Positions 16,518 through 63,879 of a DNA stretch of 64,000 bases are shown here, piece after piece (the stretch's first letter is position 1; every line of letters starts with the position of its first letter). The notes beneath the pieces are model-generated. The model was given only the letters and a program-made list of their open reading frames with translations, did no database searches and had not been told where the DNA came from. Location: IMG/VR virus record IMGVR_UViG_3300031088_000758; one strand, written 5' to 3'. The stretch is from a virus. Taxonomy: Duplodnaviria; Caudoviricetes. The position numbers and the translations under genes are program-made.

Positions 16518-18895
16518 ATACTTCTTCTTCCTTGTGAGTTGTTAAATGGATTAGTAGGTAATCTTCGAGGATTATTCACCGGAATACCAGGAGAACCAAT
16601 TTCACGAAGATTGCTCTCATCAGCATCAGTCCTAATATGACCAATCGAAGGAACCTTCTTTCGTGTTTCGCTTTTCAAGAATTCATTGACATCTTGACCA
16701 CGAATTTTACAATACTCTCTAAGGCTATCAGACATGTTTCCTTCTTTGTAAAAACTGTCAGTAGCTCTATCATAAAGATAAAGTGGCTGTGTTGATATCT
16801 GAGCGTCATCATTATTGCTCAAAGTTGTAGTTATTTCTTCAATATGGCTCACTCTGTGCTTTCCGCCAGGAAGAATTATTAACTGCACAATTAATTTAAC
16901 AGCAGAGGCAATGTCTGTATTGATAGATCGAATAGGAACCCCAGGTCTTGCTTCAGATGTAAAACCTGTCATCTTTCTCAAACATGCAGAAGGTGTTTCA
17001 GCGTGGATAGTAGTCATTCCACCTTCCATTCCTGAATTAGCAGCAATTAAATATCCTCCAAATTCTTTACCTCTTACTTCTCCAATAATCAGCCTATCAC
17101 ATCTGTTACGCATAAACTGAGCAACTACCCAATCCAATGTAGCAACTTCATTAGGATTCATACCAGGAGACCAAGGTGTGGAGTTTAGATACGTTGTATT
17201 AGGTAAATCAAATTTTAGTTCGGGAGTGTCCTCGGCAATTCCTAAACGTGTTTCCTTGGGAATGAATTTACCAAGAGCCTCAAGCATTGTAGTGTTATGA
17301 GTAGGTATAAAAGATTCTGTGATCAAATAAGTTGAATCAACTCCATCTACTGTTATACATGCCATTTCTTCACGTCTGTCTGTGATAGAAATAGATTTAA
17401 TGATTCTGTTTCTATCACGTGGTTTTTGATTTTCAACTAATTTAATATATTTCTCATACTTATCTTTTTTCCTAGGCAACATAGATAAAGTAATGCCACC
17501 AGACACATATAATCGCCATATAGGTTGATAATATTCATCAGTTGTTTTCTCTCGTTTTTTGAGATAAGGTTCTTGACTGATGGAAGTTCTTAGCCCCAAG
17601 CTTGAAGAAATTTCTCTTACATCATTTATTAAATCAAGATTTGAATTACAGAAAATAAACAAACGTTTATGGACAGTTCCATCACTATCCATAAGACCTG
17701 CTAAAAGGAGTCTACGTGCTTCAACAGAAGATTTTTTGTAAATTTCTGGAATGCTTTTTTTACTTCCTTTTTCTTGCTTTCCTACAAAGATGTCTAATTT
17801 TTGTAGATTCTTTTGCATATCCTTGATATCAAACTTCCAGCGTCTACCATTGCTTCCAACAGGCTCAAGTTTTGAATCAATTCCAAGTTGTTCAAAGATT
17901 TTGACGTATTCTTTTCTGTCATCAGGATGGGCAGTCAGTCGTACAGAATTTGAATCTCCGTCTCCAAGCCATAATCCCAAGACGTAAGGATGAATAGGAA
18001 GTTCCTCTATATCCAAAGAGTCAAAGTATTCGACAGGTTTTTCTAAAATTGGAACATTGAAAGATCTTATCCCATAGTGCTTAATGTTTTTGGACTCTTG
18101 AAGCATTTCATCTGTTGTTTTAACTACATGTAAAGGGTTATCTTTCAATCTTGAATCAGAAACATATTTATCAAATTCATTAATTTTTCTGCTTTTTTGC
18201 GTGCTTACTAACCAATTATGCTCAGCATCACAATATACTTTTTCACCCGTGTTGAATTCGACTTCATATACTTGTCTAGCTGGTTGTGGGAATTTATGAG
18301 TGACTTTAACTACGTTGCCAAAACGATCAAAAACCTCATCACCAACTTTAATCTCACCCATTGTGGACCATCCTGATGGTGTAGGTATTTTGGTGTCTAG
18401 TGTCACGCTTTTACCAGCTCCGGTGGCACCTGAAATTACCATTGTGATGTTAGCTTCAACAGCCATCCTAAGGAATTTACGCATCTCATCACTCATGGAA
18501 CCAGCTGCAGCAATAGCATCTAAACTTAGCAAAGATGTAGTCTTCTTAGCAATAGTAACTTGAGGATAATCAGAAGCAGGTGGAAGTACAATATGACAAC
18601 GACCTCTAACTTCTACTTCTCCTACTTCGTATTCTAATCTTCCTTCGAAAATAAAGCTCTCTCGACTAAAAACGTTCTGACTTTTTACAAAAGGAACCAA
18701 CCCGTGTTGTATACCATTAAAATATGTTTCTTCAGTCATACGCGGAATATTGCTAATAGCTATTCTTTTTCCTGCTCGCTTCATGAAAAACTGATCAGGT
18801 CCATTAGCTGCAATCTCTGAAACTTTTGGATCTAAAAGTAGATTGAAAATAACATTCCACTCAGGGGAACGAGTTATTTGATAATTTTGCTCCAA
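16514..18895 (-). CDS. CpaF/TadA/VirB11-family secretion ATPase containing an intein
   Basis: Walker A GATGAGK|T split by the intein. IAED, DRLIIGEVRGKE and MTTIHA motifs. Start set at TTG 18895, 10 nt after AGGAG. Confidence 0.9.
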   Translation of the reverse strand: MEQNYQITRSPEWNVIFNLLLDPKVSEIAANGPDQFFMKRAGKRIAISNIPRMTEETYFNGIQHGLVPFVKSQNVFSRESFIFEGRLEYEVGEVEVRGRCHIVLPPASDYPQVTIAKKTTSLLSLDAIAAAGSMSDEMRKFLRMAVEANITMVISGATGAGKSVTLDTKIPTPSGWSTMGEIKVGDEVFDRFGNVVKVTHKFPQPARQVYEVEFNTGEKVYCDAEHNWLVSTQKSRKINEFDKYVSDSRLKDNPLHVVKTTDEMLQESKNIKHYGIRSFNVPILEKPVEYFDSLDIEELPIHPYVLGLWLGDGDSNSVRLTAHPDDRKEYVKIFEQLGIDSKLEPVGSNGRRWKFDIKDMQKNLQKLDIFVGKQEKGSKKSIPEIYKKSSVEARRLLLAGLMDSDGTVHKRLFIFCNSNLDLINDVREISSSLGLRTSISQEPYLKKREKTTDEYYQPIWRLYVSGGITLSMLPRKKDKYEKYIKLVENQKPRDRNRIIKSISITDRREEMACITVDGVDSTYLITESFIPTHNTTMLEALGKFIPKETRLGIAEDTPELKFDLPNTTYLNSTPWSPGMNPNEVATLDWVVAQFMRNRCDRLIIGEVRGKEFGGYLIAANSGMEGGMTTIHAETPSACLRKMTGFTSEARPGVPIRSINTDIASAVKLIVQLIILPGGKHRVSHIEEITTTLSNNDDAQISTQPLYLYDRATDSFYKEGNMSDSLREYCKIRGQDVNEFLKSETRKKVPSIGHIRTDADESNLREIGSPGIPVNNPRRLPTNPFNNSQGRRSI
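17294..18409 (-). mobile_element. Intein (372 aa) with LAGLIDADG homing endonuclease, class-3 signature
   Basis: Begins SVTLDTKIPTPSGWSTMGEIKVGD and ends IPTHN before Thr. LGLWLGDG and LAGLMDSDG motifs. WCT triad: EHNW, MACITV, PTHN. Confidence 0.92.
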
Positions 18896-18964
18896 GATAA
18901 TCAATCTCCTATCAAGATTAAACTAAGATTATTTATACATATACTAATATCTTTTAACTACATT

Positions 18965-44466: not shown

Positions 44467-46986
44467 TTAAAAATTAAAATCAGGTAGAGCATCATCTAAG
44501 TCATCATCATCATCTACGATAGGTGGACGTTCTTTTCTTCTTTTTGCTGGTTTAAAACTGTCTGAACCTACAATAGAGCTGAATGAATCTCCGGCACTAT
44601 TGTTCATTGAAGAAACATTAGAACTTTTAGGTGGACGAACAGGTAATTTAGTGCTCTTTGAAAGTTGCGGGGTTTTAGATTTATTAAAATTTTCTCTTTT
44701 TTCAAAATTATCAAGGGTTTTATTTTCTTTTCGCTCAATTACATCATCTTCTGGAAAATCAATGTTTATATTATTTGATAAATCATCATCTTCTTCATCT
44801 ATAACCGAGAATTCGAAATCTCCATCAGTAACTTCCTCATTGTCTATATTCTCCTGAGAAAATTCATCTAACTCATCTTGACGATCTTCAAAAGGTTCTT
44901 CTTCGTAGCTAGCATGATGCATATAATCAACAGGTGGTTCAGGAATATTGAATTCTTTTTCTTGGAGAAAGTTATCAATATTCTCATCATCTTCTATTAC
45001 TTCGGGAGATATTTCTTCATCATAAACAACTTTTGCCTCTTCTTCTTCAATGGAGGAATGCTTTTCTAAAACACGATTAGTAGGTATCATCCATACTTTT
45101 TTAATCACTACACCTTCTTTTCCTCTGTTATTCGGTTCATCAGAAGATTTCTTTACAATAATAGCTTCAGTCTTGTAATTATTTGAAGATTTAGGCATTG
45201 ATAGATTCATAAATTTACTAGGTGGTGCTATCCAATCTTTTTCAGTGCTTGTATGCACCATTTGATTTCTTCGGTTTTTCCAGTTTAAAGAGAATATGAA
45301 ACTTTGATTTTGATTAGCTTGTCTATAGATGGTTTTAGTTTCTTGACCAGCAATATTAGAAAGTCTTTGTGCTGATTTCTCAGTTGCTCCAGCATGAACA
45401 ATAAAGTTAGCACAAGTGTCTAGAATACTGTTGAGTTGTGCTTCCCCGTTTGATTCAGCAGCTGATATGATTTGTTCATAAGATTGTGAAGCCATAGTTG
45501 TTCCAAATCCTGATGCTCTTGATTTTTCAAGCAGTGGAGCAAGAGAAGTTGGTGAAACCGCTTGGAATTCATCAATATACACATTAACATGGTCATCTAT
45601 GCCATTTCTTAACCTCATAGCTGATACTGCGCTAAGATCACTGAGTATTAAGGAACCCATATATCTTGCAAAGTCTTTTTCTGAAAGGCCATCCATTGAG
45701 AACAAAATAACATTCCCAGGTTCTTTAAGAAGCTTATAAAGATCAATGTTTCTATCATTCTTTTCGTATTTCAACCAGCGTCCATATTCTGAATTGACTA
45801 ATGTGCTCATCTGTCCCTGTAAAGCAATAAATGCTTGGTTAAGTCCACTAGTTTTCTTTTTAACCTTCAACTCAAAATCCCTAGCGACTGACTCTGCCTC
45901 AGTTCCTGAAGTAGCATCAATAAGTTCCATTAAGTTGCCTTCAGCGCTTCCGTTTAAACCGTTAACTATGGAGTTAATCTTGTAAATTTCGCCTTGGTCC
46001 CATTTAATGTTTTTTGTTTTCTTCTTATCAGCATATTTCATTATAAAGAACAATGTTTGTAAAAGTTCACGCATGTTCTGTTTATATACTGCAGCAGCTG
46101 TGTCGTATTCGCGCATACCTAAAATCATGTCAGCTTTTGCTGAACCTGAATTTTTTAAAGGATCGTAAAATGCATGCCCTGGAGAGCCTTCTACTTTATA
46201 TTCTTCGGGCGCACCATTGTCAAAATGGTAAAAATCTCTACCCTGTTCATTAGCCCATTGAGCGAGTTTTGTAGAAAATTCTTGCGAACGCTTAAAGTCA
46301 ATAACAATTATCGAAATGCCATTAATGATGTCACTCAACATCGAATTTAGCATAGTAATAGTTTTTCCTGAACCTGTTGTTCCAGAAATTAAAGTGGACT
46401 GATGCATTTCAGTATTGTAGCGATAAACAATGTTATCTTCTTCGTCAATACCTATTGCTATTTTCTCTTCAGAGTGGTATTTCCCTTCCATTAATCCTTT
46501 GATTTTCTTCTTTCGTTTGTAATATTCCCAAGGAGTTCGACGGAATTTAAACTTATACATCCAACTTCCTTCAAGTTGGACCCTATGTGGATTAGACTTT
46601 ATCTGTCTTACTTCCCAAAGGATAAGGATAAAACCGAATAAGCTCCCCAATAGAATATTTACAGAAACAAAAGCGGGAACTAAATCAACCCAATAAACAT
46701 TGATGTATCGCCAATTTTCTATTACCCCTAGAAACTTAATACCAGCATCAGAAAGGTACCACACGATTAATGACAAAGAACCAATAATAGATGATACAAC
46801 AAAAGAGACAGAAATTCTTTGTCTTAGCTTTCTTAGCAAAATAGCATACATAAGAAGACCTAACACAAAAGCTGGAAGAAATAACAAAAGTATAAGACTT
46901 AATACCAGCTTGCCCGGAACACTACTATCTTTTTTAGTGCTAGAGCTATTATTGTTAGATTCTCTTTCTTGCTCTTCTTCAGCCAT
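44467..46986 (-). CDS. Type IV coupling protein, VirD4/TraD/TrwB family
   Basis: N-terminal TMs. ISGTTGSGKT, IVIDFK, YIDEF and EKSRASG..ASQS motifs. Confidence 0.88.
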   Translation of the reverse strand: MAEEEQERESNNNSSSTKKDSSVPGKLVLSLILLLFLPAFVLGLLMYAILLRKLRQRISVSFVVSSIIGSLSLIVWYLSDAGIKFLGVIENWRYINVYWVDLVPAFVSVNILLGSLFGFILILWEVRQIKSNPHRVQLEGSWMYKFKFRRTPWEYYKRKKKIKGLMEGKYHSEEKIAIGIDEEDNIVYRYNTEMHQSTLISGTTGSGKTITMLNSMLSDIINGISIIVIDFKRSQEFSTKLAQWANEQGRDFYHFDNGAPEEYKVEGSPGHAFYDPLKNSGSAKADMILGMREYDTAAAVYKQNMRELLQTLFFIMKYADKKKTKNIKWDQGEIYKINSIVNGLNGSAEGNLMELIDATSGTEAESVARDFELKVKKKTSGLNQAFIALQGQMSTLVNSEYGRWLKYEKNDRNIDLYKLLKEPGNVILFSMDGLSEKDFARYMGSLILSDLSAVSAMRLRNGIDDHVNVYIDEFQAVSPTSLAPLLEKSRASGFGTTMASQSYEQIISAAESNGEAQLNSILDTCANFIVHAGATEKSAQRLSNIAGQETKTIYRQANQNQSFIFSLNWKNRRNQMVHTSTEKDWIAPPSKFMNLSMPKSSNNYKTEAIIVKKSSDEPNNRGKEGVVIKKVWMIPTNRVLEKHSSIEEEEAKVVYDEEISPEVIEDDENIDNFLQEKEFNIPEPPVDYMHHASYEEEPFEDRQDELDEFSQENIDNEEVTDGDFEFSVIDEEDDDLSNNINIDFPEDDVIERKENKTLDNFEKRENFNKSKTPQLSKSTKLPVRPPKSSNVSSMNNSAGDSFSSIVGSDSFKPAKRRKERPPIVDDDDDLDDALPDFNF

Positions 46987-51801: not shown

Positions 51802-52089
51802 TTAGTTTTCATCATCGTATTCTTCTGATGACTTTAGTTCTTCTATAAAAAATCTCATTTCTTCAGCTGAGTAACCTTCTTTGTCCCCTAAAATTATAAG
51901 ATTGATAACAGTTAAATCAGAAAACTCGTCAGAATTAGCTCCATTTTGAACTTCAATAACAGTTTTCTTTAAAGCTTTCATAAAAAGCACACCTAAATCT
52001 TCTCTGTCATCAGTTTTTTGAGAGATTAAAGCAGATTTAGTCAAAATAACATTAATTAAATCATGGAAAGAATCAGAAGACATTACCAA
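51802..52089 (-). CDS. Hypothetical protein
   Basis: Co-oriented ORF with GAGG RBS. Confidence 0.55.
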   Translation of the reverse strand: MVMSSDSFHDLINVILTKSALISQKTDDREDLGVLFMKALKKTVIEVQNGANSDEFSDLTVINLIILGDKEGYSAEEMRFFIEELKSSEEYDDEN

Positions 52090-52174: not shown

Positions 52175-53368
52175 TTACGCCACTCTTCTTGCTTTTATGT
52201 CATTAAACCAAGGTTCTACTGTTTTAGTAATATACTCTTCCATATTGACACCAGAGCCAGGAACTACCTCATCATCTTTGTGTAGTCTATATTCAAAAAC
52301 TTCGTTATCATTAATTAATGCTCTTACATCTGCGTATTCAAGACCTGTTGTGTTTAAATAATACAAAGTTTGCGCTCTGTAGTTATTCGGCACACCATTT
52401 TTCCAAATATCCGAATTGCTCCCAGTTTTAATTTCTAATATTCCGTTGGGGACTCCATCTTCTCTATCTGAAATTAGACCATCAAAATTAACTTGTTGCC
52501 ACTCGCGTTCAGGGTGAGAAAATTGCCCTTCCACAGAGTACACTTTTCTTTCGGGGTGCTCTTCAGCGTAGTTCTCTCTGATTCTATCTTCCCATACAGT
52601 CCCTCTATAAAGAGCTCCTTTACGCTGTGCAAATTTAAGATCGTTTTCTTTTTTGAAATCTTCATCTGTGAATGCATTAGTCTTTGTTTTAACTATTTTA
52701 GAATACCCAGCTTTTGTGTAACCAGCTGGTTCTTCTTCGAAATGTATAGAAGCCAAAGTTCCAACATCCGATCCACCAATTGTGTTGTATCTTGCTTCAT
52801 ACCATTCTCTTGAATGAGCAGGGTGTGATTCAGAATTTACAGCAATCCCTATGTTCTTTTCGGTCCAAGAATCTACTTTTGAGTTTAAAAATCTACTATC
52901 ATTAGTTGCTTCTACTAGCTCAGCAGTTAGATTTCGATAATCGTCATAATCTCTTTTATGAGACTTAACTGTTTTAGGGTCTATGAGCTTTCTTTCTTCA
53001 ACTCTTTTAATTGCTTCATTTCTTTGTCTCGTCTTTAAAATTCTATCTTCAATTATTTTATTAACTTGCTTATAGTTAGCAGCACTTTCATTAACAAAAT
53101 CTACTATCTCACTAACACTCTTTTTCTCAAGCTCTTTAATAAATGAATTTCTCACAGAAGTCTTTTTATTTCTAGCAACTTTTGTTGTTGTCAAAGTTCC
53201 ATACTTTTCTGATAATTGATCTTGCAAAGAGTTTTCTGCTTCTTCCTTGGTTTCATAGTGTGCTACTGTATCCCCTGAGATAATAGAAAACTTACAATTC
53301 TCTGGAGTCTGTGCCGAACAGGCACCTATCTTGCCTGTATCAGGATTAATATGAAACTTAACAGCCAT
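52175..53368 (-). CDS. YqaJ/lambda-exonuclease-family nuclease with N-terminal His/Cys module
   Basis: WYEARYNTIGGSDV..GTVWE..NFDG..ILEIKT..YRAQTLYY. Confidence 0.85.
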   Translation of the reverse strand: MAVKFHINPDTGKIGACSAQTPENCKFSIISGDTVAHYETKEEAENSLQDQLSEKYGTLTTTKVARNKKTSVRNSFIKELEKKSVSEIVDFVNESAANYKQVNKIIEDRILKTRQRNEAIKRVEERKLIDPKTVKSHKRDYDDYRNLTAELVEATNDSRFLNSKVDSWTEKNIGIAVNSESHPAHSREWYEARYNTIGGSDVGTLASIHFEEEPAGYTKAGYSKIVKTKTNAFTDEDFKKENDLKFAQRKGALYRGTVWEDRIRENYAEEHPERKVYSVEGQFSHPEREWQQVNFDGLISDREDGVPNGILEIKTGSNSDIWKNGVPNNYRAQTLYYLNTTGLEYADVRALINDNEVFEYRLHKDDEVVPGSGVNMEEYITKTVEPWFNDIKARRVA

Positions 53369-53468
53369 TAGATTACCAACCTTATCATGTTCTAAAATAC
53401 TTATAGTCGCTTTTCTAAAACATTTTATTGAATAAATTGATTTACTAAAAAATATTTTTGATACAATA

Positions 53469-53517
53469 AAATAGAAAATACCCCAACAAGTTTTAAATGT
53501 TGGGGTATTTTCTATTT
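53469..53517 (-). terminator. 20-bp inverted repeat terminator after WYL gene
   Basis: AAATAGAAAATACCCCAACA / TGTTGGGGTATTTTCTATTT. Confidence 0.75.
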
Positions 53518-53524
53518 AAGAACG

Positions 53525-53737
53525 TCAAAGAATTTCAATCTCTTCCATGCTGTCATAGGCAAACCTTCGATAGTCATCCTTATCCAAGTCAATCGCAACT
53601 AAAACATTTCCAGAAATAACTTCCACTGGACGAACATGTCGCTTTGAAACTTTGTTCTTATTCAGATTTGAATATGTAAAAACCAAATCCGAATTGTTTT
53701 GAATAGCAGCTTCAACTACTTTTTGAACATTCTTCAT
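53525..53737 (-). CDS. Stand-alone WYL-domain protein
   Basis: AIQNNSDLVFTY..SKRHVRPVEV..LVAIDLDKDDYRRFAYDSM. Confidence 0.75.
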   Translation of the reverse strand: MKNVQKVVEAAIQNNSDLVFTYSNLNKNKVSKRHVRPVEVISGNVLVAIDLDKDDYRRFAYDSMEEIEIL

Positions 53738-53738
53738 A

Positions 53739-56333
53739 TCATTTCACCTTATCTTCTTCTAAAAATTCGCCTACAATTTCGTCAATTCTTTTGCCCAAAG
53801 CTTCTTTAAGGTAATCCTGCTTAGAAAGTAAAAATGCTTTTACCATTGACCTAAGTTCATGAATCTCCTTGCTATCTCCGTATCGTGAATAACCCGGATC
53901 TTTAATAGCATGAATCAATTCAAGCTTCTTAGAAAACTCGTTTTGAACTTCCACAGAGAGACTTGAAAAGACACGAGAAGGATTAACTAGCTCTGTAGTT
54001 GTAGTATACTCCATACTCAATACATTTGTCAAGACACTAGAAATTTGATCCATATTTCTAGAACCTGCAGGAACGTTGCTAGAAATATTATCCATAACTT
54101 TTAGCAATCCTTCAACAGGATTATCATTGTTATTATTTTTGATAAATGAATTAACGTATTTTTCGTAATGTGTCTGATGAACATTATTCAAATAATAAAT
54201 AGCTAAACGTTCTTCCTCTGGAATCCTTGAGATTTTATCTTGAACAATATCCCGACTAAACACTCTTCCTTCAAGCCTGCTCTGAGCAGATTTGCTACGA
54301 GCAGTGTATTTAGGCCCAAAAGCATACAACGTATTATCCGTCACATAGTCAAAGAAATCTTTTTTAGGATCCGCAACAACAACAATGGACCTGCCAAACA
54401 AAGAATCGCCTTCTTCATGGTATACACCATTAATAATAGAGGGAATTTCGTATAAGGCCCTTCCCTGAACAGGAATGAACAAAGCATTCTGCTCAACATA
54501 TTCATCTACTTCTATGGCTGAATATGTATTAGCATAGCCACCATCAAGAGAATAAAGCTCATCTAAACTATTTACTGCTTCTATCACTTTTCCAGCAACA
54601 GTGAACGACTCAGATCCACTCTCACTTAGTGAATTTTCGGCAATCTTTGATTTCCTGACTTCTTTAACATGATCACTGAAAGTTTCAAAATCATAAAACT
54701 TAACAGTATTCAAATCAGTAAGTCTAAAATCAATAACCTTTTGTAAATCACTGCTTATAGTATCCTTAACGAAAATAATAGATGAAACCGAGTCTAAATT
54801 GTTTCTATTCCTCATAGCACTAGACACTTTTTTATCATTATCTACGCCGCTAATCACAACTACATTGCTGAGACGATACTTCATGAGATCTTTCTTAAGC
54901 TTTTCAATACTTGACAAGAAATGAATACTCTCCGAAGAAGAATTGTGTAACTGTTTCTCTAATTTCTCATTAGCAGATGAAATTTTTAGATTTGAATGAA
55001 CAGTGAGTTTGTCATTAGCTTTTGAATCCTCATTAAGACCTAACAAGTCGAACTTTTTGCGATCATAAGTCAAAGGAAGCACAGCTCCTAAAAGAATGCC
55101 TTCTGATTTGAAGCTGACATTTTCCATGAAAGGATTATAGCTATTTTCTGTATTTAAATCTTTCAAATCTACTGAATAACTAAACTCTTGAAAACGGTTG
55201 TTAGGGAACTCAAAAGACACCTTATTATCAACCAAGTTGTAGTTAATTTTCTCGCTGAATTCATATGCTTCATAATTATTGGTTAAAGTTTTATAATACT
55301 GAACAAGATTTTTGAACATGTAATCACTCTTGAACAGTTGACCTTTAACAAGAGAGTCAAAATTCTCTAATCTATCATCTTTCATGATCTGATCACGTGA
55401 AGAGGAAAACTCAACAATACCTGGTTTTAGCTCTACAATCAAATCATGTTCTTCAGATCCATATGAATTATAAGAATTGAAACCTTTAGGGTCATTATAC
55501 AAAAACCCAGAAAGCACATATCCTACTTTTAGTTCAGCTTTTTGATAATCATAACTACTGATAGCTTTCAAAACATTGGAAAGATTTTTCTTATTGAACC
55601 ACACTTGTCCCATGATATTGAACTCTTGTTCAATAAGAATTTCATCAAAACTGACAAAATCATCATTATGCGAATATTCTACTTCATCAATAATGATTGG
55701 CTCATCCATGGTAAAAGCGTATGCTTTGTACATGTCAATAGTTTCTTTGAACCTATCAAAATCATATTGAGTGTTGCGCACAGGAACTTTCACTAATGTC
55801 CCTGGCTGTTTGTTAGTCAGTTCTACATTCAAAATATTAGTCTCAGGTCCAGTGTCAAGACGCGAAATAACGTTTTCTGAGGTTTCACCATCACGTGTAC
55901 TTGTGAAGTAGAATTCGTTGCAATAAGCCAGAGGAGCTTTAAAACCAAGTCCATAAGCACCAACTTGATTAAAAGAGGTTTCTTTAGTAGAAGCACCATA
56001 TTCAGCAACAACTTCTTTAATGATCTTCTTAGACATTCCCATCCCATTATCCTCAACAGAGAACACAGGGTCAAAAGCATTAGGAGTGCTAATTTTAACA
56101 GGCTGAGGGTTTTTACCATTAGCCCGCGCTTCAGCAGTAGTATCCAAAGCGTTTGAAACAATTTCCCTCACAGTTGCTTGGATAGGATCATTATAAAGAT
56201 CTGTCAGACGATCCATAATTTTGCCAACAGCTGAAGCATTCAAGCTCATTACGATTCGCTCACTTTTGCTAACATCAGGGAACAAGTCTACAACATTAGA
56301 CTTACCTTTATTTCCACCTTTTGAAAGAGCCAT
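53739..56333 (-). CDS. rIIA-like GHKL (HSP90-type) ATPase
   Basis: LYNDPIQATVREIVSNALD..EDNGMGMS..YGASTK..GAYGLGFKAPLAY is the rIIA-type N-terminal signature. Confidence 0.8.
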   Translation of the reverse strand: MALSKGGNKGKSNVVDLFPDVSKSERIVMSLNASAVGKIMDRLTDLYNDPIQATVREIVSNALDTTAEARANGKNPQPVKISTPNAFDPVFSVEDNGMGMSKKIIKEVVAEYGASTKETSFNQVGAYGLGFKAPLAYCNEFYFTSTRDGETSENVISRLDTGPETNILNVELTNKQPGTLVKVPVRNTQYDFDRFKETIDMYKAYAFTMDEPIIIDEVEYSHNDDFVSFDEILIEQEFNIMGQVWFNKKNLSNVLKAISSYDYQKAELKVGYVLSGFLYNDPKGFNSYNSYGSEEHDLIVELKPGIVEFSSSRDQIMKDDRLENFDSLVKGQLFKSDYMFKNLVQYYKTLTNNYEAYEFSEKINYNLVDNKVSFEFPNNRFQEFSYSVDLKDLNTENSYNPFMENVSFKSEGILLGAVLPLTYDRKKFDLLGLNEDSKANDKLTVHSNLKISSANEKLEKQLHNSSSESIHFLSSIEKLKKDLMKYRLSNVVVISGVDNDKKVSSAMRNRNNLDSVSSIIFVKDTISSDLQKVIDFRLTDLNTVKFYDFETFSDHVKEVRKSKIAENSLSESGSESFTVAGKVIEAVNSLDELYSLDGGYANTYSAIEVDEYVEQNALFIPVQGRALYEIPSIINGVYHEEGDSLFGRSIVVVADPKKDFFDYVTDNTLYAFGPKYTARSKSAQSRLEGRVFSRDIVQDKISRIPEEERLAIYYLNNVHQTHYEKYVNSFIKNNNNDNPVEGLLKVMDNISSNVPAGSRNMDQISSVLTNVLSMEYTTTTELVNPSRVFSSLSVEVQNEFSKKLELIHAIKDPGYSRYGDSKEIHELRSMVKAFLLSKQDYLKEALGKRIDEIVGEFLEEDKVK

Positions 56334-56375
56334 ACTACTAACCTCACTTAACTATACTGAAATGTTCTAAAATAC

Positions 56376-56405
56376 AGTATAACATGAGATTATAATCAAA
56401 GTCAA
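56376..56405 (-). promoter_or_regulatory. Housekeeping-sigma-type promoter of the rIIA-like/WYL operon
   Basis: Minus strand TTGACT-18 nt-TATACT with extended TGn. Confidence 0.65.
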
Positions 56406-56431
56406 GCCTTTAATCCAATAATACGAAGTGT

Positions 56432-58513
56432 TTAAGAAGAATTATTCAACACCCATTCAGAATTAAAGCTCTCTTCGTTATCAACCGAATCGTTATCCTC
56501 AATTAAATCAAAAAGCATATCAAAACCGTCCTCTTTAAGGGAATTTTGGTTCTTTTTGTATGTAGGCTCAACAATCTCTCCAGTTAAAGTGTTGATTTCA
56601 GAACCATCTTCTTCATAAATATAAGTAGGTTCATCTTTGTCAAAATTCGAGTCAGTGTGAGTAGAAGAATCAGTTGATTCCTTGTTTTTATTGTAACCTA
56701 AAGCTTCCCTTTCAGAGACAAGATATCTTTCAGCAGCACCAGCTCTATAATCTTCTAAAACAAGACTTTCGGGAAGATTATTTGAAATAGTGTCCAACCA
56801 GGAAGTAAAATCAGATAATGGTTCTACTCTTTGATTAGTAAACACAGTCTCGAATTGTTTTTTCACAAAGTTAAAGTATATAGGATGAGGGTAATCGTAA
56901 TATTCTTCACTGTTGTACTTTCCCCAAGCTAATCTCAATGCTTTGCTTAAGAATGTATGAGAATATTTTTCAGGAACAGAATAGGTTGCCGCTAAACCTG
57001 TCCTCTGTTTCTGCTCAATACGAATAACCTCATTTTCTCTGAGTATTCTCATTGCTTGACTCACACGGGAACTACTGATGCCTAATCTTTCAGAGATGTC
57101 AGAATGAGCAAGTAGAATTCTAATGGCACCAACATTTGACAAAGGCTGAATATAGTAATTAACAATGTTCATCGCATCTTTATACTGTTGAGACAGCTTT
57201 TTCTTCCTGGACTCCTTGATAAGATCTTCACTAATTTTTGAAATATCCAATACTCTTGGTTTGGCGAATTTTGAGTTATTAGCTCTTTGTATTTTCTTTT
57301 TCTCTGCTAGCTTTTTTTTGTTGTATTCACGATAGTCCTCAGAAGTGAAAGAAGACTTCTGAAATTCTTCTTTTCCGTTAGCAAGTTTCTGTTGCTTTAA
57401 GTCTTTGAGCCTCTTTTTACCTTCGTAGCAGTAGTTATTGTGATATCTTTTCAATAATTTAAAATGATTTATATCGTTGATTAAATGACGAAAACCTAAT
57501 GATTCTTTTCGGTAAGAATCTTTATCTACACCTAATTCAATACAAGCCATAGCAATAGAGTAATTATCATAACAGCAGTGGAGAGAAGCCTTGATAACAG
57601 CCCTAGCTTGATGGAAAGTATCTATGTCTTTATTAGCTAGATTCTTTCTTAAGGAATTTATAATGTCAGGAGATGGAATAGCATGAATAAGATCAACAGT
57701 TTCATTTTCTCCAACTGTCATTTCATTCAGTATTTCTTTTTCAACAAAAGAAGAATCATATGAGAGGGGTTTTTTCACAGTGTTGATAGCATCTTTAACG
57801 TCGATTTTGTTGGAAGTTTTATTTGTTGATGAATTACGAGAGTCAGACTTAGATTGCTTGTAGAAAGAAACTATACGGTTTAGGTTCTCCATAGAAGAGT
57901 TATCCACTGTAAGTATTTCGTATGATGGATTCTTGAAGCCAAAGGATTCATTAGCAAGGAAATATCTTTTATATTGTGTTTTCTGTTCAGGATTAACAAA
58001 ATTTCCTGGGCCTACAACATATCCATTTGAAAAACCACTTCGTATGTCAGCATCTACTCGGACATCATATCCAGAAGTGTATGTAAAAGCATCGTTATAA
58101 GAGCGTAGAGAGCCTTTGGGTATTAGTTCAGCAATTTGTTCATTGCTGTATTCTGAGGGGAATTTAAGGTAAATATGGACACCACCAGAAGGAGTAATGA
58201 CAGCCAAAGATTCTCTCAGGTTAACCTTAAAAAAATCACTGAAGAAATCGATCTGCTGGTCCAGATCCCAATAACCTTCACGATGTTGATCAAGATCAAG
58301 TATGAACAGTTTATCTTGCGGAATGACTCCATAGCTGTGATCTTTTGGAATTCTTACATATCTGTTTCTCTTGCCAGGCTTGAAGCTTCCTTTGGGGGTT
58401 TTGCTGTTTAGTTTTAGTTTAGCATACTGTGCGCTTTTCCCTAGTGCTTTTTGAAATTTCTTCAGTATCTCTTGCTCAGGAGTGAGGTCAGTGGATGAGT
58501 AGTTCGAAGGCAC
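56432..58513 (-). CDS. Bifunctional primase-polymerase (AEP) domain plus C-terminal wHTH; candidate replication initiator
   Basis: FILDLDQH, ITPSGGVHIYL and DIRSG..GYVVGPG. HTH LAHSDISERLGISSSRVSQAMRIL. Confidence 0.75.
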   Translation of the reverse strand: MPSNYSSTDLTPEQEILKKFQKALGKSAQYAKLKLNSKTPKGSFKPGKRNRYVRIPKDHSYGVIPQDKLFILDLDQHREGYWDLDQQIDFFSDFFKVNLRESLAVITPSGGVHIYLKFPSEYSNEQIAELIPKGSLRSYNDAFTYTSGYDVRVDADIRSGFSNGYVVGPGNFVNPEQKTQYKRYFLANESFGFKNPSYEILTVDNSSMENLNRIVSFYKQSKSDSRNSSTNKTSNKIDVKDAINTVKKPLSYDSSFVEKEILNEMTVGENETVDLIHAIPSPDIINSLRKNLANKDIDTFHQARAVIKASLHCCYDNYSIAMACIELGVDKDSYRKESLGFRHLINDINHFKLLKRYHNNYCYEGKKRLKDLKQQKLANGKEEFQKSSFTSEDYREYNKKKLAEKKKIQRANNSKFAKPRVLDISKISEDLIKESRKKKLSQQYKDAMNIVNYYIQPLSNVGAIRILLAHSDISERLGISSSRVSQAMRILRENEVIRIEQKQRTGLAATYSVPEKYSHTFLSKALRLAWGKYNSEEYYDYPHPIYFNFVKKQFETVFTNQRVEPLSDFTSWLDTISNNLPESLVLEDYRAGAAERYLVSEREALGYNKNKESTDSSTHTDSNFDKDEPTYIYEEDGSEINTLTGEIVEPTYKKNQNSLKEDGFDMLFDLIEDNDSVDNEESFNSEWVLNNSS

Positions 58514-58763
58514 TGTATCCCCCTTTCTGAGTAGTAGCTGATTAGTAGGTTCGAGAGCTTAGTTTATCAATAATTTTTTACATATTAAGTTAGATCACAG
58601 CTTGTGATGAGGACTAGGTTCAAGCCGTCTTGATTCAATATCTTTTCTAAAATGTAAAAAGCTTACCCGACAAGCTTATTTACATACCATGTAAGATTCA
58701 AACCAGACTTTTAGGGCAAAACGGACATTAACCAGTCCATAGCAAGGTGGCTGAGTGTTTAAT

Positions 58764-59594
58764 TTAGTCTTTTGTTAGAGGGGTTTTTTCGACGTAGACA
58801 GTATAAGGTTGAGGGATACTACTTATCAGTTCTCCCTCAACCGGGATGTCTAAAGCTGTTATCTCTTCGTTATCTTTTATAAAATGTGAACCGTAAGTTC
58901 TATACAAAATTTTTTCAGCATAATGGTAAGGCGAGAATTCAGCATTTATAAAGCTTCGGCCTATCTTACTGTTAAGTGTATTGCCACTGTGAATTTGAGA
59001 AAAGGGGAGAGGATGCGGAGCGGTCAACCATGATGGGTAAGTTTCTAGAACAGGATCAGCCCAGATAGGGTTCGCTGAGTAATTTGGTGCCCCTCCTAGC
59101 AAGACAGAAGAGCCTTGGTGAAGAGTTCCAGCATATTTCTCATTAAGCCTTTCAGAGGCCGTTTGAGCGGTTTCAGGAGAGCCTATGGACAACCATTCTC
59201 CATAAGTAAGTCCACCATGTGTCAGTAATCTTCCATTATGAACTTCTGAGGTAAGCATAGTTGGGGTACTACTGAGCCAACTATTCCTGAGCACCTGTCT
59301 GCTTCGCTTGTTTGTCCATTCTTCAGGTAAGTTCAGTGCTGCAATTTCATTTGGGCCTGCTAATTGAATCCAATTTTCTTCAGTAGCACGATACAGTAAA
59401 AGGTATTTCAGTACACTTTCATTAGCTCCAAAGTCTTTCTTGTCCTTGACAAAATCATTACAACCTATGACATTCCCGAATTGAATAATCTTGTCAGCAT
59501 AATTACAGTATTGGGCGAGTTCGTTTTTCCATAATTTGTATTGACCATGTATGCCTGTTAAAAAAACTGTTTTAAAAAAGTTCTGTCGTGCCAT
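58764..59594 (-). CDS. Calcineurin-like metallophosphoesterase fold, degenerate active site
   Basis: Five motifs in order, most altered: TGIHG, FGNVIG, GPNE, THGG, SGNT. Confidence 0.6.
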   Translation of the reverse strand: MARQNFFKTVFLTGIHGQYKLWKNELAQYCNYADKIIQFGNVIGCNDFVKDKKDFGANESVLKYLLLYRATEENWIQLAGPNEIAALNLPEEWTNKRSRQVLRNSWLSSTPTMLTSEVHNGRLLTHGGLTYGEWLSIGSPETAQTASERLNEKYAGTLHQGSSVLLGGAPNYSANPIWADPVLETYPSWLTAPHPLPFSQIHSGNTLNSKIGRSFINAEFSPYHYAEKILYRTYGSHFIKDNEEITALDIPVEGELISSIPQPYTVYVEKTPLTKD

Positions 59595-59640
59595 AAAAAA
59601 TCTTCTTTCTCAACTTTTGTTATAAGCAAATGCGTTGAGT

Positions 59641-60849
59641 TCAGCTGAAGATATTAAGTATGTCTTTTATCGTACCTGAGTTATTCTTTCCGTAAAGGCT
59701 TGTTTTGGACCTTCTTTGGATAAGTTCAGCTTCTTCTTTTGCATCGCGGATTTCTTTTTTCTTGATGAAGTTTGTTACTGCTAGATCAATATCTGTTATG
59801 AGATCAGATGCGTAGCTTGCTTTTTTATGGGCAGTTTTGTCATCATTAGTTCTCATGTAGTTTTTGATATATGAATTTAAGTATCCATAAGCTTCATCTG
59901 CTGAATTTACTGGCTGGTGATGAAACTCGTTATTCACGCGAGTTTCGATATACCATTGTCCTTGATTGTATCGAACACCCCAAGAATTACGAGATTGATT
60001 CGTTTCATTATCGTATACTCTTACATCAATTTCTGGTGTCAAAGCTTGGTAGTATCCATTTTCGTTAAGGAATTGTTCAAAAATTTTGCCTCTAAAAGCA
60101 GAGTGTTGGTAATCAGCATTTACGATCAAAGAAGTAGGGTCGCTTTTAGCAAAGGTTCCATACCCATCTGTTCTAGCCCACAGTTTTTGAGGGCCTTCGG
60201 TTTCTTCTTCCACCATGAAGTAAGCATCAATTAACTGTCGTTTTAAGAATTTAGTTTGTCGCTCGATATCTTCTGAGTTTGTGTTTACAGTAGAATTAGA
60301 TATGACGGACTCACGAATGATATCTTCTGCACGAACAATTTCTCTTTCAAAATCATTGTGTAAATCTAAGTCATGTTTAACGGTTTTTCTAGCATAATTG
60401 TTGTTTGGTAGCTCTGTTTCTAGGAACCATTTGCTAGTAATTACTCCGTCATCGTAATCGGGAACGGGAATCCTTTTGATGAAGATTTTATGAGATGAGT
60501 CATTGTAATACATATTGTTCTGTTTTAACTGAGAATGTAAAGAATAAAATTCAGGTTCTTTTCCTGTTGAATAAAATTCATGATCTACTTTATCAGCAAA
60601 GTCTCTCATAGTTTCTTTTTGATTGATTCCGCTAAAATCGGTGAGAGCAACCATCCTTTTTGTGTCTGGATTAGAGAAAGCTTTCTTAACGTTTTCTCTA
60701 GCAGTTTCAAGGTCAGTTGCGGCTTTTTGCAAGAATAAAGCTGCACTGGCAGCTTCTACGGTACTGTAATCAGTTCTAGGGCAGCCTCTTAACTTGGCAC
60801 GACATTCAACAATGTCTCCATTAACGTCAATATGGTATTTCTTTGCCAT
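59641..60849 (-). CDS. Hypothetical protein with N-terminal His/Cys module
   Basis: MAKKYHIDVNGDIVECRAKLRGCP. AGGAG RBS. Confidence 0.7.
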   Translation of the reverse strand: MAKKYHIDVNGDIVECRAKLRGCPRTDYSTVEAASAALFLQKAATDLETARENVKKAFSNPDTKRMVALTDFSGINQKETMRDFADKVDHEFYSTGKEPEFYSLHSQLKQNNMYYNDSSHKIFIKRIPVPDYDDGVITSKWFLETELPNNNYARKTVKHDLDLHNDFEREIVRAEDIIRESVISNSTVNTNSEDIERQTKFLKRQLIDAYFMVEEETEGPQKLWARTDGYGTFAKSDPTSLIVNADYQHSAFRGKIFEQFLNENGYYQALTPEIDVRVYDNETNQSRNSWGVRYNQGQWYIETRVNNEFHHQPVNSADEAYGYLNSYIKNYMRTNDDKTAHKKASYASDLITDIDLAVTNFIKKKEIRDAKEEAELIQRRSKTSLYGKNNSGTIKDILNIFS

Positions 60850-61422
60850 AACTAATACTCCTAAATCCTTACCGATTACCTAATCTTTTTCTAAAAGATT
60901 TTGTTTAGTATTTCTTTTTGTAATCTCATAATTCTATATATCTTTTAGATTAACAAAATTTTATTAAAAAATCAAGTTTTTAAGGTAATTTTCTCGAATC
61001 CTCTTAAATATAATATCCATATTTCAAAGTTAAAAGAGTATTTTTAGAATACCAATTACAATTTGTTTAGTAAAATATAGGCACACGATTATGCAGGAAA
61101 GTATCGTCAAAATAGTTGACTACAAACCTAAAATAGCAGTTTAAAAGCATGTATGGTTTTTATTTAGGTTCTTAAAATGTGCGTTAAATTCTATGTAATT
61201 TTAATAAAAATATTTGTCAGTATTATTTTGAGTGTTCTATGGTAAGTGAAAGCCAAAAGAAGTCGTGTTTCTGCGATTTTTTTAGAAAATGATGTAAAAA
61301 TTACTAGAAACCTGAGTTTTTGCTGAGAAAAAATGTTGTGTAAAGTTTGAAACTTTGTCAAGTGCTTATTGAGTGTATGCAAATATGATAAATATTGATT
61401 CTTGTTTTTGATTAGTAATCAC

Positions 61423-61480
61423 ATGAAATGAGAACACCCCAGAAGCTTTGTATTTTCATTCTGGGGTGTTCTCATTTCAT
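61423..61480 (-). terminator. 22-bp inverted repeat terminator
   Basis: ATGAAATGAGAACACCCCAGAA / TTCTGGGGTGTTCTCATTTCAT. Confidence 0.75.
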
Positions 61481-61486
61481 ATATTC

Positions 61487-61852
61487 TTATAGTTTTTCGT
61501 TCAATATTTTATGTTGTATGGACCACTGAGTTCCGTTAATAAATATTACAGAAAAAAGCTTTCTGAAAGGAGTGTGAAAAGAATCTTCTATAATTTCTTC
61601 ACTACTTTCGGAGAATACTAGATTGCTATGAATGTTCATCAATTCTATTTCGACCTCTAATGTAGTAGTTTCTTCGTCTACTTCTAGTCCATACCTAACA
61701 CCTTCAAGAAAATAGTTCCTGATTTGTTCAGCCACATCAAAAGTAGTCAAAGAATTCATATGATTAACTAAATTAGATAATTCTAAACTTTCTAAATTTG
61801 TGTCAATTTCAAGTCGTGCGATAAGTTCTACTTCTTCAAAGCTAAGGCTCAT
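61487..61852 (-). CDS. Acidic hypothetical protein
   Basis: GGAG RBS before ATG 61852 (MSLSFEE). Confidence 0.6.
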   Translation of the reverse strand: MSLSFEEVELIARLEIDTNLESLELSNLVNHMNSLTTFDVAEQIRNYFLEGVRYGLEVDEETTTLEVEIELMNIHSNLVFSESSEEIIEDSFHTPFRKLFSVIFINGTQWSIQHKILNEKL

Positions 61853-61886
61853 ATACACTCCGTTTCTTCGTTGTTGCTGATTATTA

Positions 61887-62390
61887 TCAATCACCAGTAG
61901 TGTCATTCCATTCAGCTCTTCGTGCTTCTTGCTTAGTTGGAAGTACCATAAATACTAATAATATTAGCCCTCCGATAGAAGGAATGAATGACAAGAAATA
62001 AAAAGCACCAGAGAATCCAGCATCATGCAATCTTCTCCAGCATATTGCTAATGATGGAACTATCATGGCTAGCCACAGCAAGAAGAATACTATAAAACCA
62101 GCTACCATGAGGAAACTCCCTAGTGGGGATCCAGAATATTCGTAAGTTCCATAGCTGGTTTCTTCCATTGGGGACATTACAGCCCCAGCAATGACAAGTA
62201 TGCTTGGAATTATAGACAACAGAAAAGTGAATAATGTTGCCCACCAGTATTCACTTCTAGATGCATAACCACTAAATCTTGCATATTTTTTAAAAAACCT
62301 TTTAACAGATTGACTAAATGATGCTCCGTATAATGGTTCGCTAAGTGGCGGAGAAATTCTGGAATTTTGTTCATTATTTATAGCGTTCAT
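61887..62390 (-). CDS. DUF805-family membrane protein
   Basis: FFKKYARFSGYASRSEYWW..PSLAICWRRLHDAGFSG. Confidence 0.9.
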   Translation of the reverse strand: MNAINNEQNSRISPPLSEPLYGASFSQSVKRFFKKYARFSGYASRSEYWWATLFTFLLSIIPSILVIAGAVMSPMEETSYGTYEYSGSPLGSFLMVAGFIVFFLLWLAMIVPSLAICWRRLHDAGFSGAFYFLSFIPSIGGLILLVFMVLPTKQEARRAEWNDTTGD

Positions 62391-62410
62391 TATTATCACT
62401 CCCGTATATA

Positions 62411-62454
62411 ATATTATGACAACGCTGATTTTTTAGATAGCGTTGTCATAATAT
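62411..62454 (-). terminator. 16-bp inverted repeat
   Basis: ATATTATGACAACGCT / AGCGTTGTCATAATAT. Confidence 0.6.
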
Positions 62455-62481
62455 ATCAAGAATAGGCTTTGTAGAATACAA

Positions 62482-63321
62482 TTAGTGAGAGAAATATGGT
62501 GAATCAATTATGTCAGTTAGTCTAGGGTTTTCTACTAGTTCTTGAGCGTTTCTTTTGGTCATTTCCCAGTTATACAATAAATTTGGATTTTTTGTATTTC
62601 CAAGTCTGTCAAATTTTTTTAAATCATATGTTAATCTTACGAAAACCCTATCACCATCATATTCGGCAAATCCTGATTCATGTACAGTGTATGCATCCAT
62701 AAAATAAAAAGTATTTGGTTTAGCAATAAATGGCTTTCCGTCAACTTGTAAATCAAAGCCTTTGAAAACATTAAATTTTTCTGGATCTGCTACAACAAAT
62801 GGTTGATTCCAAAATTGAGTTCCCCCGTTAGTAGTGGCAACATAATTTCTTGTAATCTTTGTTTTAGGGTTAATTCTTGTTCCTTGAAAACCATCTACAT
62901 GTAAACCGCCATGTCTTTGCTGTTCTCCAGTTTTTACAGGTTTATTGTCTACCGTGATGTAAGTATAATAGTCTTTCCAATGAGGATTATGATAATGTTC
63001 AACAGAAATCAATTGTTCAAGAGTGTTTTGTAGAGATTTCCATTGTGTGGGAAGCTTATACTCTGATTCATCTGCTAAGCGAATAGGCATATCTAAACAT
63101 CTTTCATTATACGGAAAGTCTAATTTTCCTAGTGTTATTTCCACAGGTGAGTGAACTTCCTCAAAATATCTTTCGTAACTGAAAATTCTTTCATCTTCTA
63201 GTAATCTCTCATGATGAAAAGAAGATTTATTAATGTCTAACAGTATGTATTCATCATTGGCAAATGTTTCAATAATTTCAGCATCAGTGTTTCTCATAAA
63301 TATATTCCTCTCATTAAACAT
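62482..63321 (-). CDS. 2OG-Fe(II) oxygenase-like protein (start may be 63297)
   Basis: QRHGGLHVDG (HxD), GGTQF, VHES (distal His), RVFVRL. Confidence 0.6.
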   Translation of the reverse strand: MFNERNIFMRNTDAEIIETFANDEYILLDINKSSFHHERLLEDERIFSYERYFEEVHSPVEITLGKLDFPYNERCLDMPIRLADESEYKLPTQWKSLQNTLEQLISVEHYHNPHWKDYYTYITVDNKPVKTGEQQRHGGLHVDGFQGTRINPKTKITRNYVATTNGGTQFWNQPFVVADPEKFNVFKGFDLQVDGKPFIAKPNTFYFMDAYTVHESGFAEYDGDRVFVRLTYDLKKFDRLGNTKNPNLLYNWEMTKRNAQELVENPRLTDIIDSPYFSH

Positions 63322-63333
63322 TTGATAATGTTA

Positions 63334-63879
63334 TCAACAAGCGCTTGCTCCACCGCAAGGTCCACCATCATAATATGAATGTCTATAATTAGGTCTAGGT
63401 GTTGTTTTTATTTCTTGCTTCTCGATTTCTTGAGCAATTTCTTTTTGTTCTTTGAGGGAATCTTTTCGTTTTTTGTCAAGAATTAAAATGTCTTCATTCT
63501 GTTGTTTGATTTCTTCATAGATTTTATCTCTATCTTCTTTTGATTTGTCTAAGCTTAAAGATTTGTTAAGGTCTGTTAACTTGAATTTTCGATTTTGTAA
63601 GTTAGATGTAAGATGTTCAACTCGCCTATTAACAATAGCTAACTTTTTGCGGTTTGTTTCTAACGTTTCTTCATTACTAGATGTTTTAGAAGAGGATCGT
63701 TTAACAGTGGAAGTAGTTTTTGTGTCATTCATTTTTTCATAAGCTGCTTTTGCCTCATCTTTTGAATCATAATGTGCAACAACTGTTCCAGCGTCAGTTG
63801 AAAATTTACAGCTTTCGGCTGACGCTGCTGAGCATTTTCCGGCTCTTCCTGTCTCGGGATTAATATGAAATTTATTCAT
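63334..63879 (-). CDS. Coiled-coil protein with N-terminal His/Cys module
   Basis: MNKFHINPETGRAGKCSAASAESCKF..HY. AGGAG RBS. Confidence 0.7.
   Translation of the reverse strand: MNKFHINPETGRAGKCSAASAESCKFSTDAGTVVAHYDSKDEAKAAYEKMNDTKTTSTVKRSSSKTSSNEETLETNRKKLAIVNRRVEHLTSNLQNRKFKLTDLNKSLSLDKSKEDRDKIYEEIKQQNEDILILDKKRKDSLKEQKEIAQEIEKQEIKTTPRPNYRHSYYDGGPCGGASAC

Follow-up and report, generated by a model that had tools for sequence, protein, structure and literature searches.

Three genes in a 64,000-nucleotide stretch of the virus record IMGVR_UViG_3300031088_000758, hereafter the window, raise the question of why otherwise unrelated proteins should begin with the same short module. The window is part of a 727,572-bp element from a phyllosphere metagenome, and the three genes encode a YqaJ-type nuclease (gene 1), a lysine- and glutamate-rich helical protein (gene 2) and a two-lobed protein of unassigned family (gene 3); their coordinates are collected in Table 1. 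An earlier note on this DNA had read the shared head as a small zinc-binding fold that addresses its cargo, either for co-transfer through the element's type IV secretion system (T4SS) or, as a weaker option, for recruitment to a common hub. Here we describe the module as a hallmark domain of a large family of T4SS-bearing, plasmid-like elements of 0.3-0.8 Mb, and of the two proposed roles we favour the second.

Homology of the three N-termini was examined with a profile of 145 foreign sequences, from which the window's three rows and their close orthologue were excluded. This independent profile recovers all three genes from the window's 1182 six-frame open reading frames (ORFs), with the E values given in Table 1, and finds no fourth copy among them. 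Each tagged ORF, that is, each ORF carrying the module, opens at the first possible start codon past an in-frame upstream stop, and the module therefore lies at the extreme N-terminus without an unseen extension ahead of it. All genes between 52 and 64 kb of the window, these three included, are on the minus strand. Between the two long copies, protein identity is 53% but DNA identity is only some 70%, and the sequences upstream of them are unrelated. Conservation of the protein with DNA this dissimilar identifies them as old paralogues under protein-level selection rather than products of a recent duplication. An RNA-level or promoter cause of the shared 5' gene ends was also considered and rejected, since only the protein level is conserved.

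The module had been put at about 45 residues in two genes and shorter in the third, and this holds: the long copies span 48 residues, and the copy in gene 3 aligns over profile positions 1-27 only and lacks the second His. That the short copy is a decayed module was ruled out, because the same short form, C-P-x3-[D/N]-[Y/F], is common to the gene 3 orthologues of two other elements (G001 L032 and G003 L059) and to four orthologous metagenomic proteins (P0279-P0282). Judged by sequence, the short module is a conserved subtype. Behind the module the three proteins diverge as described earlier. The YqaJ assignment of gene 1 is secure, with a score of 60.5 bits against PF09588 (cut-off 22) over profile positions 1-149 of 150 and a match to the RecE-like exonucleases of phrog_434 (E 1e-26). 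Orthologues of gene 1 that also carry the module are P0002 (73% module identity), G001 L025 and P0275, a gene of the syntenic 300-kb contig L021. In L021 the module-headed YqaJ gene lies about 5 kb from the gene for VirD4, as it does in the window, and its module is strongly diverged, yet keeps all four ligands. Library searches gave no family match for the 402-aa and 181-aa proteins. The unknown domain reported for the former thus stands, and the coiled coil reported for the latter is suggested by its K/E-rich sequence and by SMC/Rad50-type matches, all of them weak.

Inspection of 149 aligned modules reveals a spacing of H-x10-C-x5-7-C-x7-11-H within about 48 residues. Mean identity among these modules is about 40%, and identity to the reference module is mostly 35-50%. 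At this level of divergence H6, C17 and C25 are present in 100% of sequences and H37 in 99%; three aromatic positions are conserved at 97-99%, seven positions are K or R in at least 50% of sequences, and an N-P-x-T-G turn, Ala19 and a [ST]-K-E-E-A helix cap are further conserved features. In three paralogues of the relative G003 the first His is gone (Y-A-L-N) and a new one has appeared two residues past the second Cys (C-P-H). This ligand shift, together with the Asp or Asn that replaces the second His in the short subtype, supports a metal-ligand role. The module is therefore likely a small metal-binding fold, and we infer that its four ligands most likely hold one structural zinc ion. The earlier proposal of an H..C..C..H zinc fold is made likely for the long form by its near-invariant ligands and does not carry over unchanged to the short subtype, from which the second His is missing.

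The module is absent from every domain library searched, and its position, size and ligand pattern are unlike known precedents. Neither the whole proteins nor their isolated first 50 residues gave a module match in Pfam-A 2025, NCBIfam 20 or PHROGs v4, and the module profile has no match among PDB sequences at E≤10. A match to a known domain of other function, which the earlier note had named as counter-evidence, thus appears in none of these four collections. When the 149 modules were searched singly against Pfam at E≤10, no family was matched by more than four members (best E 0.025), and PF01693 (Cauli_VI) was matched by none of the 149; nor was PF01693 found in 151 Actinomycetota genomes. 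A full-text literature search with the motif strings returned no relevant paper.

To describe the module in three dimensions we turn to an AlphaFold2 model of the gene 1 copy, generated from a 149-row alignment (predicted local distance difference test, pLDDT, 87). The model confidently predicts a beta-hairpin, short helix, strand and helix, with strands at residues 4-7 and 14-17, helices at 26-31 and 41-49 and a short strand at the second His, such that each of the four ligands occupies a separate structural element. Foldseek against the PDB gives no match to this model at E≤0.001. An exhaustive VIA-align search gives a best Z of 4.1, to Kunitz domains, with weak similarity to the N-terminal domain of RNase H1 (1qhk; Z 3.2, root-mean-square deviation 2.4 A over 42 residues) and to ribosomal L9 N-domains (Z 2.0-2.5). 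A shape search of ESM-Atlas returns the module's own family first and then the Ada zinc domain at a TM score of 0.51. From the predicted structure, then, the module appears to have no convincing relative.

The residues that follow the module are distinctive as well. Mean net charge is 0.0 for the module, +1.6 for the next 30 residues and -0.7 per 30 residues for the remainder of the protein. In 45% of tagged proteins, versus 9.5% for a control segment, a Ser/Thr-rich stretch after the module is followed by a basic phi-[KRTS]-K patch that falls 14-33 residues past the second His, most commonly at 23-26. Such a patch could act as a hinge, contact nucleic acid or mark a site of processing. In the window, such linker patches lie around 53180-53200 and 63690-63705.

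An exhaustive HMMER profile search of 1.84 billion representative proteins, clustered at 50% identity, indicates that the module heads at least 501 protein clusters at E≤1e-3. The best 150 clusters include 147 real members; P0012, P0013, P0089 and P0105 were set aside, and those inspected (P0013 and P0089) are repetitive proteins. As the earlier note had anticipated of such a search, the hits are almost all N-terminal and sit on dozens of unrelated cargos. The module starts within 17 residues of the N-terminus in 146 of the 147 proteins, whose lengths range from 60 to 586 aa, and within 8 residues of the inferred start in all 40 ORFs of three elements. Its extreme N-terminal position therefore holds for the three window genes and for more than 97% of the family, and fails for rare copies: P0075 has one C-terminal copy and P0149 two in tandem, which tells against a pure transfer tag. 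Two further proteins, P0032 and P0122, are very short and consist of little beyond the module.

Across genomes the module is rare outside a particular class of element. A pattern scan of 185,579 species genomes yields seven module loci, and a profile search of 400 further Actinomycetota genomes yields none. Five Actinomycetota genomes, four of them metagenome-assembled, carry single copies and have no match to TraG-D_C (PF12696); one of these copies belongs to a chromosomal membrane protein with two transmembrane segments, encoded among metabolic genes and adjoining an RNase T gene, and another is found within a small integrase/resolvase island in Gordonia sinesedis. In contrast, the module is strongly enriched in elements with a VirD4/VirB4 T4SS, namely all three complete relatives and the syntenic contig L021. 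The complete relatives in IMG/VR, of 309, 345 and 438 kb, have 11, 10 and 21 module matches, respectively, the 21 matches of the largest corresponding to about 15 unique copies since this record is a partial palindrome. Each element thus encodes roughly 10-20 different proteins with the module, and their genes are dispersed over the element rather than grouped in one region. The confinement to T4SS-bearing elements that had been predicted accordingly holds in the complete relatives and L021 and seemingly not in the five Actinomycetota genomes.

The relatives are filed as viruses, and whether they are phages bears directly on what the module could do. All three complete relatives encode a VirD4 homologue (43-49% identity, E 1e-165 to 1e-212) and a VirB4-type AAA_10 ATPase (E 1e-47 to 1e-53), and none matches the Pfam models Terminase_6N, TerL_ATPase, HK97 Phage_capsid or Phage_portal, although very divergent jumbo-phage proteins could escape these models. 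Because VirD4 and VirB4 are present and capsid, terminase and portal are unmatched, these relatives read as conjugative elements rather than phages. Within the sensitivity of the Pfam models, the sequences indicate that the module-rich giant records are plasmid-like conjugative elements despite their viral labels.

The cargos behind the module are diverse. In the window and three records, 40 tagged proteins fall into 29 cargo clusters; ten clusters have several members, and nine of those ten span different elements. Orthologous pairs in different elements imply that many tag-cargo combinations are old and inherited. Tagged proteins are 60-620 aa long and have at most one recognised cargo domain each, and about 85% of the cargos have no Pfam match. 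Those with a match are YqaJ, T4-type RNA ligase RNA_lig_T4_1, a PolyA_pol/CCA-adding enzyme, RNase_T, HNH, the ADP-ribosyltransferases ADPrib_exo_Tox and ART-PolyVal, LPD1, 2H-SAK phosphoesterase, Zeta/AAA_33 kinase, HD, GNAT, TelA and M78 and M48 peptidases; PF18760, PF18796, PF22547, PF06114, PF09511 and PF03496 are among their Pfam families. Among the cargos that can be annotated, over half act on nucleic-acid ends. By sequence, then, the recognisable cargo appears to be mostly RNA/DNA end-repair and host-modifying enzymes. Module identity is nearly the same within an element (36.4%) as between elements (35.0%), a difference too small to interpret as concerted evolution.

The surface turn and aromatics kept strictly across hundreds of diverged copies, the flexible basic linker, the many unrelated cargos per element and the even divergence together point to a single conserved partner for the module, which would then be neither a spacer nor a chance motif. 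We therefore favour the module as a docking, or adaptor, domain that tethers enzymes to one common, conserved intracellular target, a reading to which we give about half of our confidence. Under this model, the four ligands would hold one zinc within a compact N-terminal mini-domain, a flexible, Ser/Thr-rich basic linker would join that mini-domain to unrelated cargo, and docking of the module to the common target would leave the cargo enzyme tethered there by its linker. Near-equal divergence within and between elements is what is expected of one conserved target rather than of element-specific receptors. The C-terminal, tandem and nearly stand-alone copies and the copy on a chromosomal membrane protein likewise indicate a binding domain rather than an end-specific signal, and we do not think that the module is a classical secretion signal.

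As for the target, nucleic acid (RNA or incoming single-stranded DNA) is our tentative first choice, and a conserved protein of the element or host is a somewhat weaker candidate. A nucleic-acid target would fit the prevalence of cargos acting on nucleic-acid ends, the basic linker and, by analogy, an architecture that parallels those of RNase H1 and Ada. Several observations weigh against docking, above all to nucleic acid. The module is electrically neutral, unlike typical nucleic-acid-binding mini-domains; its similarity to nucleic-acid-binding folds is weak, with Kunitz domains scoring equally well or better; and the TelA, peptidase, membrane-protein and coiled-coil cargos have no obvious link to nucleic acid. 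Both the metal and the partner are ones that we infer, and a delivery tag would account at least equally well for a module that is almost always N-terminal and almost limited to T4SS elements.

That delivery tag is the strongest competing explanation, and one that we consider unlikely but deserving of full weight. In this scenario a VirD4-like coupling protein or an adaptor recognises the module, and the T4SS pumps the tagged enzymes into the recipient along with the DNA; there, with the same low probability, they would act as separately encoded counterparts of 'polyvalent' early effectors. The distribution speaks in its favour, with abundant copies in every complete relative (10, 11 and about 15 unique copies in 309-437 kb), a VirD4 and a VirB4-type ATPase in each of the three alongside the unmatched terminase, HK97 capsid and portal, none in 400 other sampled Actinomycetota genomes and only seven loci in 185,579 species genomes. 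So do the more than 97% N-terminal placement, the overlap of the cargo with the polyvalent repertoire (ART-PolyVal, LPD1, 2H and zincin peptidases) and the location of the tagged YqaJ gene about 5 kb from VirD4 in both the window and L021. Known T4SS substrate signals, on the other hand, are C-terminal or internal, as exemplified by the C-terminal signals of VirB/D4 systems, BID, XVIPCD and the relaxase TSA. We know of no folded, metal-binding N-terminal T4SS signal, and such a signal would need unfolding. Delivery also fits poorly with the five module-bearing Actinomycetota genomes that lack a TraG-D_C match, one of which has its copy on a chromosomal membrane protein, with the stand-alone, tandem and C-terminal copies, and with the scattering of tagged genes over the elements. 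When the module (alignment A5) was co-folded with the VirD4-like protein (residues 120-839; alignment A7), the score was 0.00, which is evidence neither for nor against.

Less probable still is a regulatory or stability module, either a zinc/redox switch or an element recognised by a protease or chaperone, that would set the timing or lifetime of these enzymes jointly. Invariant thiol and imidazole ligands would suit such a switch, and the phi-K-K patch, at its 45% versus 9.5% in the control, is a possible processing site; zincin-type peptidases occur among the tagged proteins themselves, and peptidase processing has been proposed for polyvalent proteins (PMC5512222). No dedicated protease or chaperone was identified, however, the patch occurs in fewer than half of the proteins, and nothing sets this account apart from that of a simple flexible basic linker.

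Packaging into a jumbo-phage capsid is very improbable. By this account the module sends proteins into the virion, to be injected in the manner of T4 Alt with its capsid-targeting sequence and of the internal proteins, and the IMG/VR filing of three relatives as viral and the Uroviricota label on ESM-Atlas clusters of the module fold agree with it; against it stand VirD4, VirB4 and TrbL/VirB6 and three complete records without a terminase, HK97 capsid or portal match, subject to the same limit of Pfam for divergent jumbo-phage proteins. Finally, chance resemblance or recent local duplication of a 5' gene end without shared function, for which nothing speaks beyond the short length of the motif, is by sequence already refuted by E values of 1e-20 to 1e-24 from the independent profile, by the 501 clusters in public data and by the roughly 70% DNA identity of long copies whose protein is conserved.

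A docking domain of this kind can be placed among known systems, since one constant targeting domain on many payloads is a principle already known from polymorphic toxins and XVIPCD effectors and also from polyvalent proteins, where it takes a fused form. XVIPCD is a C-terminal domain of about 120 residues without Cys/His ligands that is encoded on Gram-negative chromosomes and binds VirD4 in the X-Tfes of Xanthomonadales. The XVIPCD and BID effectors resemble the present proteins in having one conserved domain on many unrelated proteins of a T4SS-bearing replicon, whereas the present module is N-terminal, 48 residues long and based on metal ligands. Polymorphic toxins combine constant N-terminal trafficking domains (LXG, MuF, PAAR/Rhs) with swapped C-terminal payloads. 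Here too a constant N-terminal domain precedes a variable payload, and some payloads are of toxin type (ART, Zeta, HNH), but most recognisable payloads are repair enzymes and the tag-cargo pairs are old orthologues, not fast-swapped cassettes.

The hybrid-binding domain of RNase H1 (PF01693; 1qhk), the L9 N-domain and the Ada zinc domain (PF02805) share with the module an N-terminal position and a basic flexible linker before the enzyme. The predicted beta-beta-alpha-beta-alpha order fits the RNase H1/L9 N-domain fold, although the scores are weak and Kunitz domains score higher; moreover, there is no sequence-profile match to any of the three, and the module is neutral rather than basic, with a His/Cys site at its core.

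The polyvalent proteins of phages and conjugative elements have a repertoire of RNA/DNA end-repair and host-modification domains, are argued to enter with the DNA and have been proposed to undergo peptidase processing (Iyer, Burroughs, Anand, de Souza, Aravind 2017, PMC5512222). Like the tagged proteins, they belong to mobile elements that bear a T4SS, and the shared repertoire comprises ART-PolyVal (PF18760), LPD1 (PF18796), 2H phosphoesterase, zincin peptidases and RNA-repair enzymes. In contrast to polyvalent proteins, which fuse many domains in one giant polypeptide, the proteins described here are separate, single-cargo products with a common 48-residue head, and that head matches no Pfam model, the LPD and ART-PolyVal families included. 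The elements themselves recall the Inocles of oral Streptococcus, plasmid-like giants of 245-395 kb with low GC content that all have VirB4 and VirD4 (Kiguchi et al. 2025, PMC12340149). Both are giant low-GC plasmid-like elements known from metagenomes and equipped with VirB4 and VirD4, those of Streptococcus from saliva and the present ones from phyllosphere and soil.

Table 1. Positions of the tagged genes, their parts and the transfer-related genes of the window.
Feature	Position	Strand	Basis
Gene 1, 397 aa: module, linker and YqaJ/lambda-exonuclease-type nuclease	52175..53368	-	ORF and family matches
HCCH module of gene 1, residues 1-48 (His6, Cys17, Cys25, His37)	53225..53368	-	independent profile, E 1.6e-20
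Linker of gene 1 (residues 49-187), a Ser/Thr-rich and then basic stretch with a helical spacer behind it	52808..53224	-	no family match
YqaJ nuclease domain of gene 1, residues 188-343	52340..52807	-	PF09588
Gene 3, 402 aa: short module variant and conserved cargo of unknown fold	59641..60849	-	ORF and orthologues
Short HCC(D/N) variant of gene 3, residues 1-36 (His6, Cys16, Cys23; Asp27 replaces second His)	60742..60849	-	independent profile, E 8.5e-4
Gene 2, 181 aa: module, K/E-rich helical region and C-terminal CGGxxxC motif	63334..63879	-	ORF and orthologues
HCCH module of gene 2, residues 1-48 (His5, Cys16, Cys24, His36)	63736..63879	-	independent profile, E 1.9e-24
VirD4-like type IV coupling protein	44467..46986	-	PF12696 and PF10412
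T2SSE (VirB11/CpaF-type) ATPase, 796 aa, split by an intein with LAGLIDADG homing endonuclease	16514-18904		
Two TrbL/VirB6-like transfer genes, one of them fused to an M23 peptidase			profile matches
Lysozyme, NikA-like protein, DnaG primase, SbcC, HU and sigma factor			profile matches

The two cargos without family matches merit further description. The gene 3 protein is predicted by AlphaFold2 to be a two-lobed alpha/beta protein (pLDDT 84; predicted template modelling score, pTM, 0.75), for which no PDB match above Z 6.0 was found, the best being a ribosomal protein chain. Its two lobes (about residues 76-226 and 244-369 of the model) are similar to one another, and each shows weak alignment (Z 5.5-6.0) with ribosomal protein chains of comparable size; the likeness of the modelled lobes suggests an internal duplication. 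Orthologues of gene 2 are P0003-P0009, with the C-terminal Cys motif in five of seven aligned sequences. This end, Y..CGGxxxC, follows the helical region at 63337-63363 in the window and recurs in P0003, P0005, P0006 and P0009; a further small Cys site and a motif of the lipidation or cyclisation type are possible readings. The ORFs downstream of the tagged genes (51802-52089, 58764-59594 and 62482-63321) have no family match.

Separately, the 10-mer TTTTAGAAAA occurs eight times in the window versus 1.5 expected, a count reached in none of 100 shuffles. It lies at 12826, 18039, 42505, 45062, 53411, 58643 and 60887 on the minus strand and at 61280 on the plus strand; seven of the eight sites are on the coding strand, and five fall 38-130 nt upstream of gene starts, including those of the tagged YqaJ gene, the 402-aa gene and a PrimPol-like gene. 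The 10-mer may be a promoter or operator element of many genes, not restricted to tagged ones.

Family matches indicate that the window encodes a Gram-positive-type transfer apparatus with associated functions (Table 1). Homologues of the VirD4-like protein form 131 clusters, on contigs reaching 828 kb, and several of these contigs share the gene order PrimPol - HATPase - DnaG - VirD4 - TcpC-like - GmrSD - NikA - TadE - PIN/PhoH. VirD4-like proteins end, after a non-conserved tail, in a near-invariant L-P-D-L motif (alignment A7, including the window protein), a candidate docking motif of the coupling protein. LAGLIDADG/intein Pfam matches, seen in the window's T2SSE ATPase, also occur in many VirD4-like homologues of 1000-1400 aa.

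GC content is 40-59% in the relatives with VirD4 homologues, versus 35% in the present element. Among these contigs, L062 (828 kb) has 55% GC and L019 (63 kb, 59% GC) has five or six tagged genes within 16.5 kb. The element family thus seems to occupy hosts that differ widely in base composition. Partial matches to the window occur in other phyllosphere and soil sequencing runs, and no RNA run is among the listed runs that match its DNA; megablast of 24 kb of the window gave no matches in plasmid and phage collections, and IMG/VR scans with two further module subtypes gave no new records. In G003 (IMGVR_UViG_3300012642_000011, 437,576 bp) the module matches are mirrored in pairs, the two coordinates of each adding up to 437,577, reaching at least 107 kb from each end with none at 131 kb. 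This symmetry reflects either very large inverted terminal repeats or an artefact in which the assembly folded back on itself.

The module thus defines a large domain family, of at least 501 clusters, that has no entry in the libraries searched, and its 48-residue profile can retrieve hundreds of unknown effector or repair proteins. Were the module a transfer tag, it would be the first N-terminal, metal-dependent T4SS targeting domain, and 10-20 tagged repair and host-modifying enzymes would be co-transferred by a Gram-positive-type T4SS in an undescribed form of multi-cargo delivery. A T4SS component as the partner would mean a new class of secretion signal and a possible protein-delivery tool. 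If the module instead binds one common partner, as we favour, that partner would reveal how giant elements organise their takeover enzymes. In either case the module marks the probable establishment and counter-defence toolkit of widespread, unstudied conjugative elements of 0.3-0.8 Mb on leaves and in soil.

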